A DNA stretch of 26,965 nt from positions 1 through 26,965 of the forward strand of contig JACQPZ010000059.1 of assembly GCA_016207265.1 (NCBI GenBank), read 5' to 3'. A program made the translations under genes and the position numbers. Under the pieces are notes generated by a model. That model was given only the letters and a program-made list of their open reading frames with translations. It was not told the DNA's origin and ran no database searches. The DNA is from Candidatus Latescibacterota bacterium. Lineage in GTDB: Bacteria > Eisenbacteria > RBG-16-71-46 > SZUA-252. Positions 6,696 through 9,607 of this stretch are shown here, piece after piece (within the stretch, counting starts at the first letter, position 1; every line of letters starts with the position of its first letter).

Positions 6696-6771
6696 TGGAG
6701 CTGGTGAGCGGAATCGAACCGCTGACCTACGCATTACGAGTGCGTTGCTCTACCAGCTGAGCTACACCAGC
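6696..6771 (-). tRNA. tRNA-Thr (CGT)
   Basis: GCTGGTG-TAGCTCAGCTGGTAGAGC-A-ACGCA CTCGTAA TGCGT-AGGTC-AGCGG TTCGATT CCGCT-CACCAGC-T-CCA. Confidence 0.97.
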
Positions 6772-6824: not shown

Positions 6825-6900
6825 TGGTGCGACCCCGCAGAATCGAACTGCGGACACCCACGTTTTCAGCGTGGTGCTCTACCAACTGAGCTAGGGTCGC
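6825..6900 (-). tRNA. tRNA-Phe (GAA)
   Basis: GCGACCC-TAGCTCAGTTGGTAGAGC-A-CCACG CTGAAAA CGTGG-GTGTC-CGCAG TTCGATT CTGCG-GGGTCGC-A-CCA. Confidence 0.97.
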
Positions 6901-6911
6901 GCCAAGCGTAG

Positions 6912-6941
6912 AAACTACCACGGCGGGCCCGCGACGGTCAA
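6912..6941 (-). promoter_or_regulatory. Putative sigma70 promoter for tRNA-Phe/tRNA-Thr and downstream genes
   Basis: TTGACC-18 nt-TAGTTT with extended -10 TG, ending 11 nt before tRNA-Phe. Confidence 0.7.
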
Positions 6942-6944
6942 CGC

Positions 6945-9170
6945 CTAGGCGAGCCGGCGGCGACGTTCGGACCGCCCTTCGCGGCGGTCCGGCTTGCGAC
7001 GCCGGTCCTCGTTGTCGCGTGTCGGGAGATAGATCGTCACGATGCTGCTCCAATCCCCCTCGCTCCGGGCCCGGATCTCGCCTCCGTGCTCGCGGACGAT
7101 CTGATACGCCATCGCGAGCCCCACGCCGGAGCCGTAGCGCCGCGACGTCGAGAACGGGACGAAGAGCCGGTCCAGGACCTCGCCCGCGACCTTGGGGCCG
7201 TCGTGCGCGATCTCCGCCTGGACGGCGCCCTGCCCGGCGCGCGTCTCGACCCTCACCCTTCCCCCGCTCGGCACGGAGCTGAGCGCGTAGCTCAAGACGT
7301 TGACGAGGACCTGGCGCATCTTCTCATTGTCGAGGAGGAGCGCCGGGACGTCGGGCGCGAGTCGCTTCAGGAGCCGCACGCGCCGCCGCACGAGGTCTTC
7401 GGCCTGCGATTGGAGCACGTCCTGTACGAGCGCGTTCAGGTTCTCGAGCTTGAGACGCGGCCGCGTCATCTGAGCCAGCGCGACCTGCTCGGTGAGCACC
7501 CGCTCCAGCCGCTCGGTCTCGCGGATGATGATCTCCAGATACTCCCGGTTCTCGTCCTTCGCCGGGAGGCTCTTGAGCACCCGCTTCGCGAACCCGGTGA
7601 TCGCGGCGACCGGGTTGCGAATATCCTGCGCGACCTGGATGCCCCGCTCGCCGACGACGGCGAGCTTCTCCGCGTGGCGGAGCTGCGCTTCGACTTCCTG
7701 AAGCCGCCGATCCTTCGAACGCAGGGTCTCCTCGTGCGAGGAGCGGATGTTCGCGAGCGACGCGATCGAGGCCAGAAGCTCGGCGGCCTGGGCGTCCTCC
7801 GCGTCGAACGCGGCCGGCGCGTCCTGCCTGCCGCCCCCTTTGTTGAAGACGAGGAGCGCTCCCCAGATCGCGTCGCCCTCTCGGATCGGGACCGCGAGGA
7901 CGCCGCGCCAATCCTCCGGCACGAAGCCCGAAAGCCGCGGGTCCGCGCTGACCCCCTCGATGATCAACGGCTTCGAATCCGCCTCGAACCACTGGAGCAG
8001 CCAGGCGCCCAGCCGGTCCAAGTCCTGTCCCGCGCCGGGATCCACCGCGTGGACGTGGGCGATCTCGGGCGCGTCCCCGGTCCCGCGCGTCCACGCCACG
8101 CCGCCCGACGCCTGGGTCCCCGGAAGAAGGGCCCGGAGCGCAAGCCCGACGCGCGCCTCCCGGTGGGAAGGCTGCGCCGCCGCGCGGCAGAGATCGGTCG
8201 CGGATTGCAGCGCGGCTCCCCGCCGCCGGACCAGGTCGAGGACGCTGTTCCCCTCGAGCGCGATGCCGGCCTGGGCCGTGATCGCGCCCAGAAGCTCGAG
8301 TTGATCGGCGGTCCATCCCGAGTACCCGAGCCCCTGGGCCACGACCAGGACTCCGAGAACCCGCTCCCTGCCGAACACGGGGAGCAGGGCCACGGCTCCT
8401 TCGGGGAGCGATTCCGAAACGCTGCCCGGGATCCGAAGCTCGCGGCGGGGGTTCGCGATGAGAGCGGCGCGCCCGTCGAAGACGGCGTCCGCGAAGAGAT
8501 CTCGATCCTCATCGAGATACAACGTCTCATCTCTCAGCCGCTCGAACACCGTACCGTCGAATCCGCCGGCGGACTCGAACGACTCGAGGTCCACGTCGGT
8601 GCGAGACGGCGCTTCATTGGTCTCGCGGTCGGCGCGCCGATACGACACAGCCAGCTTGAGGCCCGTCCCGTCGGGAATCAGCCGGAAGAGGAGGATCGTA
8701 TCGGCCACGTCGGCGAAGGCCCCGCCGATCGCGGCCAGGAGAAGCCGGCCGATCCGATCGGGAGAGAGCGCTCCGTGCATGAGCGGAATCCACCGGAAGA
8801 GAGACCCGGCCGCGCGGGATCGCGCCTCCTCCTCCTCGATTCCGTCCGCCTGCTCGAGGCGCGCCGCCCGCAGCTCTTCTTCGAGCAGATGGAAGAGAAG
8901 GCCCAGCGTCGGCATCACTCCCGCGGACCCGGGCGGCGCGGGTTGGACCCGCTCGACGGCGCCCTGGATGCGGGCGCAATGGACGCAATCCTGGGTGAAT
9001 CGCGACTCGAAATCCTCGCGCGCCTCGAACGGGCACGGTCGGGGCTCGACATAGCAGGCCCCCTGAGCGACTCGATCCGCCCCGTACGCCTTGCGATCCG
9101 CGTAGCGCTTCCATTCGAGGACGATCATCTCTTCCAACCGAGCCGTTCCTGACGCCCGCTTCGCACCCAT
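6945..9170 (-). CDS. GAF-domain sensor histidine-kinase-like protein with substituted catalytic residues (pseudo-HK)
   Basis: Two GAF-like segments, then QLRHAEKLAVVGE...VAQDIRNP (H-box with His replaced by Gln), EIIIRETERLERV, N-box NVLSYA, G1 HDGPK, F box LFVPF, G2 GSGVGLA. ATG 9170 has a GGAGG SD; the track start is TTG 9209. Confidence 0.85.
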   Translation of the reverse strand: MGAKRASGTARLEEMIVLEWKRYADRKAYGADRVAQGACYVEPRPCPFEAREDFESRFTQDCVHCARIQGAVERVQPAPPGSAGVMPTLGLLFHLLEEELRAARLEQADGIEEEEARSRAAGSLFRWIPLMHGALSPDRIGRLLLAAIGGAFADVADTILLFRLIPDGTGLKLAVSYRRADRETNEAPSRTDVDLESFESAGGFDGTVFERLRDETLYLDEDRDLFADAVFDGRAALIANPRRELRIPGSVSESLPEGAVALLPVFGRERVLGVLVVAQGLGYSGWTADQLELLGAITAQAGIALEGNSVLDLVRRRGAALQSATDLCRAAAQPSHREARVGLALRALLPGTQASGGVAWTRGTGDAPEIAHVHAVDPGAGQDLDRLGAWLLQWFEADSKPLIIEGVSADPRLSGFVPEDWRGVLAVPIREGDAIWGALLVFNKGGGRQDAPAAFDAEDAQAAELLASIASLANIRSSHEETLRSKDRRLQEVEAQLRHAEKLAVVGERGIQVAQDIRNPVAAITGFAKRVLKSLPAKDENREYLEIIIRETERLERVLTEQVALAQMTRPRLKLENLNALVQDVLQSQAEDLVRRRVRLLKRLAPDVPALLLDNEKMRQVLVNVLSYALSSVPSGGRVRVETRAGQGAVQAEIAHDGPKVAGEVLDRLFVPFSTSRRYGSGVGLAMAYQIVREHGGEIRARSEGDWSSIVTIYLPTRDNEDRRRKPDRREGRSERRRRLA

Positions 9171-9229
9171 CTCGCCCCTCCCGGACGACCACGCCGCGCC
9201 CCGTTCCAAGACCGGGTATTCCTATCAGG

Positions 9230-9258
9230 TTGATTTACGGCAATTTAGGAGATATCTT
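9230..9258 (+). promoter_or_regulatory. Putative sigma70 promoter for the DUF3467-like gene
   Basis: TTGATT-17 nt-TATCTT in an AT-rich intergenic stretch. Confidence 0.55.
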
Positions 9259-9304
9259 GAGACAGCGATCTCGGCATAACCCATTGGAAAAAGGAGGATT
9301 AGGG

Positions 9305-9607
9305 ATGGATGCGAAACCGAAGGCCGGACCCGGCCACATCAACATGGAGTTGGGCGAGAAGGAAGCGGAGGGGATCTACTCGAATTTTGCGGTCATCAGT
9401 CATTCCCTCTCCGAGTTCGTGCTCGACTTCGCGCGCGTGCTGCCGGGCACCCAGAAGAGCAAGGTGTTCGCGAGGGTCGTGATGACGCCGCCGAACGTGA
9501 GGTCCCTGCTCGTCGCGCTCGAGACCAACATCAAGAAGTACGAGGATCAGTTCGGGAAGATCAAGACCTTCGAGCCGCAGGCGAAGGAGATCGGCTTCAC
9601 GACGTAA
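9305..9607 (+). CDS. DUF3467 family protein, 100 aa
   Basis: INMEL...AEGIYSNFAVISHS.SEFVLDF...ARVVMTP..V..L..AL..NI.KYE..FG.I matches the DUF3467 pattern; SD AGGAGG ahead of ATG 9305. Confidence 0.85.
   Translation: MDAKPKAGPGHINMELGEKEAEGIYSNFAVISHSLSEFVLDFARVLPGTQKSKVFARVVMTPPNVRSLLVALETNIKKYEDQFGKIKTFEPQAKEIGFTT

Follow-up and report, generated by a model that had tools for sequence, protein, structure and literature searches.

We analysed a 26,965-nucleotide stretch of DNA, hereafter the window (positions 1 to 26,965 of contig JACQPZ010000059.1, assembly GCA_016207265.1), from a Candidatus Latescibacterota bacterium that GTDB places in the Eisenbacteria. Our subject is a reverse-strand gene (6945..9170, stop codon at 6945-6947) that encodes a 741-residue relative of sensor histidine kinases. 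The evidence supports the view that its product is a genuine and conserved pseudo-histidine kinase, in which the histidine kinase fold is kept without the acceptor His or the ATP-site residues. We propose, with a probability of roughly 0.6, that it is an orphaned histidine pseudokinase: the gene for its receiver was deleted first, the catalytic residues were lost afterwards, and the core was kept under selection.

A kinase core without its catalytic residues

The reading frame is open throughout 6945-9209 (reverse strand), with the ATG at 9168-9170 as its likely start, and the resulting translation is identical to collection record P0002. Pfam detects two GAF stretches, a HisKA domain (38.3 bits, 1.4e-9) and a HATPase_c domain (60.4 bits, 2.7e-16), the last two above their cut-offs of 26.9 and 26.4 bits. 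An AlphaFold2 model built on 59 orthologues, with a mean predicted local distance difference test score (pLDDT) of 85, arranges the chain as a small helical N-terminal domain, a long helix, two GAF domains, the dimerisation and histidine phosphotransfer (DHp) hairpin, the catalytic and ATP-binding (CA) domain and a disordered tail. On the reverse strand, GAF domain 1 (residues about 152-287) spans 8310..8717 and GAF domain 2 (residues about 337-456) spans 7803..8162, both delimited by Pfam (GAF, GAF_2 and GAF_3 for the first) and by the secondary structure of the model, with tandem-GAF fold matches for the second; the DHp hairpin (residues 457-567) covers 7470..7802 according to alignments to Protein Data Bank (PDB) structures, and the CA (HATPase_c) domain (residues 574-716) covers 7023..7451 according to Pfam. 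In a whole-chain fold search the best matches were bacteriophytochromes and plant phytochromes, with a GAF tandem resembling those of PDE5/6 and phytochromes, while the DHp-CA part matched ZraS with a TM-score, normalised to ZraS, of 0.62-0.64. Pfam scores, model confidence and the ZraS match together establish a DHp and CA fold. The nearest curated families are AtoS and ZraS, at 155-167 bits, which is far under the curated cut-offs.

Residues were aligned with HMMER to the solved kinases ZraS (9jfj), KinB (3d36), ThkA (3a0r) and a FixL chimera. In this structure-anchored alignment the phospho-His position is taken by Gln515 (CAG, 7626-7628; VAQDIRNP against VAHEIRNP), the Mg-ATP-binding Asn of the N box by Tyr628 (TAC, 7287-7289), the Asp of the G1 box by His656 (CAC, 7203-7205) and the second Gly of G1 by Lys660 (7191-7193), so that G1 reads H-D-G-P-K. 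A preliminary description of this DNA, made from its sequence, had inferred a pseudo-histidine kinase from these very codons for Gln and Tyr, which are exact and confirmed by the alignments; it had also called G1 degenerate, which calls for a correction, as x-D-G-P-K proved to be the ancestral form (His-bearing orthologues read ANDGPK) and only the change of the first residue from Asn to His is new. The F box (FVPF), the G2 box (GSGVGLA, 7119-7133) and the HGGEI motif are all intact, as that description had held for both boxes and for the uninterrupted frame. Measured against a functional HisKA kinase, the window protein possesses the F box and G2 of the ATP lid and lacks the acceptor His, the N-box Asn, a G1 of the form Asp/Asn-x-Gly-x-Gly and a cognate response regulator; it does carry Asp516 one residue after the His position (H+1) and, at H+4, Asn519, where HisKA phosphatases have Asn or Thr. 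Among 14 further HisKA matches in the same genome, all eight with an H box recognisable by pattern have the His, and Gln515 is therefore not an assembly-wide artefact.

The substitutions are shared by close relatives. A collection of 5.8 billion proteins yielded ~85 orthologue clusters of ~740 residues at 50-85% identity, several of them named Candidatus Eisenbacteria. Gln stands at the H position in all of these clusters and in every sampled genome of the window's family, f1 (family and genus codes are the tool's own). The N-box position is Tyr, in a few cases His or Phe, and G1 reads HDGPK or HDGPR; the F box FVPF and a G2 of the form G-S/A-G-V-G-L-A are kept among orthologues. H+1 is invariably Asp or Glu in f1, and H+4 is Asn or Thr in all clusters except one, which has Ser. 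Conservation along the protein is highest in the CA domain and second highest in the DHp hairpin.

Ratios of nonsynonymous to synonymous substitution (dN/dS, Nei-Gojobori) were obtained from genus-level orthologues in six within-genus pairs, three of them with dS near or above 1. They amount to 0.00-0.08 in the DHp hairpin, 0.008-0.064 in the CA domain and 0.10-0.36 in the GAF domains (0.10-0.31 in GAF domain 1), and the three unsaturated pairs (dS 0.07-0.44) gave 0.00-0.07 in DHp and 0.008-0.043 in CA; the DHp-CA core thus lies below the sensor domains. We looked in family f1 for dN/dS near 1 or frequent frameshifts and saw neither: all f1 loci that were fetched or listed have an unbroken frame, and in six of the 40 f1 genomes the match is partial because a contig end cuts it. 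A conserved loss combined with purifying selection is what marks a histidine pseudokinase and not a pseudogene. The loss of the catalytic residues is old and selected, and is neither recent decay nor a sequencing error. The preliminary description had likewise argued against a single sequencing error, and the same Gln in ~85 independent clusters bears it out; its pseudokinase stands as well, given that Gln, Tyr/His/Phe and HDGPK/R are kept in f1 at a core dN/dS of 0.00-0.08. It had further reasoned that orthologues with His and canonical boxes would point to recent decay: distant orthologues do carry both, but the age of the loss speaks against that inference.

The lost receiver and the path of decay

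A six-frame search through 206 genomes of the phylum, which NCBI names Candidatus Eisenbacteria, showed where the His-bearing orthologues occur; all of these genomes are metagenome assemblies. The kinase gene is present in 183 and absent from family f9 (0/3) and from part of f18. From these genomes 84 loci were fetched, together with two contigs from a protein look-up. A fixed order runs through the loci: lpxL-like, DUF3467 (divergent), kinase, receiver where there is one, tRNA-Phe (GAA), tRNA-Thr (CGT), glmM and glmS. Because this synteny is precise, the kinases can be taken as orthologous across the phylum. Both tRNA anchors were located in the window by ARAGORN on the reverse strand, tRNA-Phe at 6825..6900 and tRNA-Thr at 6696..6771.

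In the basal families f2, f3, f4, f6, f7, f13, f15 and f17, the kinases have VAHEIRNP, the N-box Asn and an ANDGPK-like G1, and an open frame of ~120-150 residues sits between the kinase and tRNA-Phe. Its product is a single-domain receiver that is well conserved and has an intact acidic pocket, Asp, Ser and Lys; against a receiver profile it scores 158-199 bits in the first 22 such loci and 109-145 bits in f3 and the other f5 loci. The order in His-bearing lineages is thus kinase, receiver, tRNA-Phe, tRNA-Thr, glmM, and that of the window is kinase, tRNA-Phe, tRNA-Thr, glmM, with a gap of 44 nt (6901..6944, reverse strand) between the kinase stop and tRNA-Phe at the site that the receiver gene occupies in the loci of other families.

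The receiver has not moved elsewhere in the genomes searched. No receiver domain was found on the window's contig (C15), in agreement with the earlier statement that the window holds no response regulator, and the best profile score anywhere in the window's genome, which is 82% complete, is at most 87 bits. Two single-contig genomes of the receiver-less clade gave best scores of 84 (G204) and 93 bits (G139), a 99% complete genome of the window's own genus gave 87 bits (G186) and a further genome of the clade 100 bits (G082). In a control genome (G057) the match that adjoins the kinase reaches 194 bits and the second best 93.5 bits, and the 84-100 bits of the receiver-less genomes are background level. 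At an empirical threshold of E<=1e-33 applied over the 206 genomes, a receiver orthologue was found in none of the 149 genomes of the clade (f1 0/40, f11 0/8, f12 0/2, f16 0/10, f18 0/89) and in 32 of the 50 genomes across the ten families that have it (f2 8/13, f3 1/1, f4 5/6, f5 4/15, f6 3/3, f7 1/2, f13 5/5, f14 1/1, f15 1/1, f17 3/3). Because the window protein has no His, no Mg-binding Asn and no receiver, canonical phosphotransfer is, as far as its sequence tells, impossible for it.

In one f2 locus (L068, genome G011) the kinase is canonical, but all that was found of the receiver is a pair of low-scoring fragments (47 and 21 bits) that lie in different frames, from either a recent loss or a fault of assembly. 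Two loci of the f1 type with 72-81% identity in DUF3467 (L088, L096) were deposited as metagenome-assembled genomes of Candidatus Binatia and Bacteroidota, probably through mis-binning or mislabelling. Searches for a named equivalog of the ancestral receiver or kinase gave none that reached a cut-off.

The GAF2-DHp-CA region of 69 rows, with the trait columns taken out, was used for a maximum-likelihood gene tree built by a quick search. In it the receiver-less rows, 39 in number, group together as a single clade (SH-aLRT 93), and the minimum number of changes on the tree is two for the receiver, five for the His, eight for the N-box Asn and eight for the G1 His. With the receiver present, the His is kept in 22 cases and lost in 4; with the receiver absent, it is kept in 3 and lost in 31, an association behind which stand only two independent receiver losses, too few for a statistical test. 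Members of the receiver-less clade have Q, R, N, E, A, D, V or an unchanged H at the acceptor position, and Y, H, F, S, R, G, Q, C or an unchanged N at the Mg-binding position; most have His as the first residue of G1. Sister receiver-less lineages have A, S, G, H, Q or K at H+4, and f11 has lost the ATP lid, yet its protein and tail persist; the clade-wide function is therefore independent of both H+4 and the lid. An exhaustive hidden Markov model search of 1.84 billion representatives gave a similar variety at the H position of 95 clusters that bear the C-terminal tail described below (R 26, H 22, Q 15, E 11, A 6, D 4), 29 of which keep the N-box Asn; in the 55 next-best kinases, which are tail-less, the His is present in 47 and the N-box Asn in 49.

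Two lineages capture intermediate states. Genus g80, which is receiver-less (L021, L043, L082-L085), reads H/N/N, H/N/S (three genomes), H/H/H and Q/Q/S at the H box, N box and G1, with invariant residues flanking these positions. Residue decay was therefore not simultaneous with receiver loss and is ongoing in places; g80 itself represents either decay in progress or a kinase with another acceptor. Family f5 (L034, L072, L079, L081) has Glu or Asp for the His, Ser for the N-box Asn and His in G1, and retains a receiver whose Asp site is intact. It is a second, independent loss of the phospho-His, and gives a pair like DivL and DivK.

Weighing the explanations

The sequence of events that we favour would have begun with an ordinary sensor kinase in the cytoplasm, of GAF-GAF-DHp-CA architecture and ZraS/AtoS/NtrB type, whose gene was transcribed together with that of a single-domain receiver. 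The receiver gene would have been deleted in the common ancestor of five families, the window's among them, and the residues that serve phosphoryl chemistry only (the acceptor His, the Mg-ATP Asn and the first residue of G1) would afterwards have been freed from constraint and replaced, becoming fixed in the window's family as Gln, Tyr and His. Purifying selection on the protein is still strong, and strongest in the DHp-CA core and in a C-terminal tail with three Asp-Arg-Arg (DRR) repeats, and the window's family has gained an N-terminal domain with four Cys (Cys4). The protein would now be a dimeric ligand sensor whose GAF (and Cys4) domains alter the conformation of the DHp-CA core and tail, a change that a partner would read by binding, with no autophosphorylation or phosphotransfer, as in DivL and PsmA.

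Several points weigh against this account. No partner or output was found, and beyond the absence of phosphotransfer the mechanism is one that we infer. The acidic H+1 and the Asn or Thr at H+4 are almost invariant in f1, and the DHp surface on which receivers dock is little changed from that of His-bearing orthologues, so a receiver could still dock there. A few receiver-less lineages (genus g80) keep the His, the Asn and the G1 Asn, and kinase activity may have outlasted receiver loss, perhaps with another acceptor; given the intact F box and G2, some nucleotide binding may also persist. Finally, the genomes are metagenome assemblies, the window's own being incomplete, and the tree and its two receiver losses carry the limits given above.

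The second of these points bears directly on the alternative that survives best, a rather unlikely one in our estimation: a dedicated signal-regulated phosphatase, or a DivL-like phospho-specific binder, that acts on a non-cognate response regulator elsewhere in the genome, such as the sigma54 activator that had been proposed. H+4 is needed for the phosphatase activity of HisKA proteins, and CrdS-H371A keeps most of that activity whereas N375A loses it (PMC3510030). By analogy, a protein of this family without its His may still be a phosphatase, conceivably one with a role on a non-cognate regulator here. The receiver-docking positions of DHp helix alpha-1, nearly the same as in His-bearing orthologues, fit such a role, as do the coexistence in f5 of a Glu or Asp with an intact receiver and the presence in the genome of at least 19 receiver domains and at least 13 sigma54 activators, several without an adjacent kinase. 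What tells against it is that the cognate receiver, the phosphorylated substrate that such a protein would need, is absent from 149 of 149 clade genomes, and that protein and tail persist in sister lineages with other residues at H+4 and, in f11, with the lid gone. No candidate target emerged either, the best matches to the ancestral receiver profile being at background level. A census in which His-less HisKA proteins number 722 of 76,471, ~0.9% of the family, also argues against phosphatase activity as their general role (PMC12632262). The preliminary description had favoured a signal-regulated phosphatase and had named a sigma54 activator, like the one needed for the pil promoter, as its candidate target. 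This attractive guess is corrected here: it is unsupported because the cognate target is gone, and the only link to such an activator is sequence kinship to the ZraS/AtoS type.

RetS is said to act on GacS and RocA on CovS, and a comparable modulator, working on a bona fide histidine kinase through a heterodimer or complex, would suit a protein whose dimerisation hairpin is its second most conserved part, in a genome that has canonical HisKA kinases of the ZraS/NtrB type. The nearest of these paralogues (on contig C120) is distant, however, at 111 bits against 536 for self, and no kinase is conserved beside the gene in any lineage, which makes this reading doubtful.

A still active kinase, with another acceptor residue or a non-canonical ATP site, is very improbable. 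It could draw on the intact F box, G2 and HGGEI, and Asn at the first G1 position is reportedly compatible with activity in ThkA; but the Mg-binding Asn is Tyr, His or Phe, the adenine-binding position of G1 is His, and there is no receiver to accept the phosphate. Nor is any His conserved across the DHp of the receiver-less clade, the sole one conserved in f1 (RHAEK, 16 residues before the H box) not being kept in f16 and f18. Least credible of all is a functionless relic held in place by synteny inertia only, since the gaps in f9 and f18, two Eisenbacteria loci that have DUF3467 and lpxL without the kinase, and the heavy decay of some f18 and f11 members are outweighed by an f1 frame that is intact throughout, a core under strong purifying selection and a conserved new N-terminal domain gained by that family.

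Appended regions, neighbouring DNA and known systems

The best lead to the output of the protein is the triple-DRR tail (6948..7022, reverse strand; N-x-DRR-x3-5-[DE]RR-x2-4-DRR), which is modelled as disordered (pLDDT 40-54). Orthologues with and without the His retain it across the phylum, with small variations, and the outgroup and the next-best kinases lack it. A role at the RNA level was rejected: the Arg codons vary, folding z-scores are near 0, and relatives do not share the hairpin that the tail codons form in the window, a perfect 9-bp inverted repeat with a 6-nt loop at ~6968-6991 (reverse strand), 21 nt before the kinase stop and ~70 nt before tRNA-Phe. With variable codons and no conserved RNA structure, the tail is therefore a protein-level motif. 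The idea of a tag common to other proteins of the genome was also dropped, a pattern scan having returned only the kinase gene and spurious frames.

It is possible, and we put this forward tentatively, that the DHp-CA core and DRR tail always had a second, phosphorylation-independent output through binding of nucleic acid, a nucleotide second messenger or protein. If so, that output would explain both the survival of the protein after receiver deletion and the repeated, independent loss of catalytic residues, and the tail would be a new kind of effector motif on a two-component sensor. The conserved tail offers a testable output motif in an uncultured phylum.

At the other end of the protein lies the Cys4 domain (residues 8-75; 8946..9149, reverse strand), confidently modelled (pLDDT ~91), with Cys39, Cys46, Cys62 and Cys65 in a C-x6-C-x15-C-x2-C pattern. 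The four Cys are invariant in 81 full-length f1 orthologues, and the domain occurs only in f1, being absent from the orthologues of all other families. It has no Pfam match even at E 10, and an Atlas feature search stayed below 0.8. It may serve as an input for metal, Fe-S or redox signals that was acquired once the kinase was dead.

Upstream of the kinase, a divergent gene (9305..9607, forward strand) encodes a DUF3467 protein (Pfam 2.7e-24) and adjoins the kinase in nearly all orthologous loci. We considered and rejected it as a functional partner, for the adjacency is not kept outside the lineage and, as noted, two Eisenbacteria loci have DUF3467 without a kinase. Homologues from outside the lineage at 51-70% identity lack an adjacent kinase in 63 of 64 loci, the lone exception (L161) lying beside an ordinary tail-less kinase. 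DUF3467 is probably no partner, its adjacency being a matter of synteny. The protein itself is unusually well conserved for a protein of ~100 residues, being 51-70% identical across Eisenbacteria, KSB1, Calditrichota, Zixibacteria, Ignavibacteria, Bacteroidota, WOR-3, Kryptonia and Gemmatimonadota (L097-L165). A profile search detected no solved structure for it by sequence, and the sole mention found in the literature was uninformative.

The AT-richer region between the two genes holds, in all f1 loci, a block at ~9228-9262 (forward strand) that consists of TTGATT, 17 nt, TATCTT and then GAGAC and is probably the promoter, of sigma70 type, from which DUF3467 is transcribed; when the region was scanned for promoters, nothing scored above shuffles. 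A strong Shine-Dalgarno sequence, AAAGGAGG, precedes the DUF3467 ATG at 9305.

Few HisKA proteins without the His have been studied, namely DivL, PsmA, RocA and RetS. DivL of Caulobacter crescentus (PDB 4q20) is both a direct sequence match (E 7e-16) and a fold match of the window protein, and likewise has a HisKA-type DHp-CA core with the phospho-His replaced, in its case by Tyr; it is conserved and functional without kinase or phosphatase activity and works by binding (PMC4211667). DivL still has a receiver that it reads, DivK~P, and it controls CckA; the DivL-DivK pairing is mirrored in f5. The window's genome, by contrast, has no cognate receiver, and its protein has a GAF tandem in place of PAS domains, together with the triple-DRR tail and the Cys4 domain. 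PsmA of Streptomyces is, like the window protein, a lineage-wide conserved pseudokinase in fixed synteny with degenerate ATP motifs; its His position varies across species (E, D, Q, V, Y), it has no autokinase activity and its output runs through interaction with DivIVA (PMC12963549). The window protein differs from it in keeping D-x-x-N, the F box and G2, and in having canonical ancestors and their partner extant in the same phylum.

The nearest relatives of the DHp-CA sequence, ZraS, AtoS and NtrB (NF007688, NF008468; 9jfj; E 1.6e-34 for ZraS with phmmer), are active kinases that pair with sigma54 activators, in contrast to a window protein that lacks the His and the Mg-binding Asn and that was ancestrally partnered by a single-domain receiver. 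Plant phytochromes and subfamily-2 ethylene receptors likewise join a GAF-type sensor to a histidine kinase-related module without His chemistry, and full-length phytochromes are the best whole-chain fold matches of the window protein. In these eukaryotic receptors, which bind a chromophore or ethylene, the module serves as a dimerisation or scaffold unit; beyond the domains they show no sequence kinship to the window protein. ThkA of Thermotoga maritima (3a0r) has a G1 of the form Asn-x-Gly-Pro (NSGPP), as do the His-bearing orthologues here, and it keeps its His and N-box Asn and is an active kinase.

Set among these systems, the Eisenbacteria lineage leaves the whole path visible in living relatives, from a canonical kinase with its receiver, through a His-less protein with its receiver (f5) and a deleted receiver with catalytic residues still present (g80), to a fixed pseudokinase with a new Cys4 domain (f1). 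As a natural experiment, it shows in what order the elements of a two-component pair can be lost, and which portions of a kinase core persist for reasons other than catalysis. Pseudokinases of this kind were already known from DivL and PsmA; what is new is the reconstructed path, with the receiver lost first, the catalytic residues drifting repeatedly and the core retained, and the conserved tail that accompanies it.

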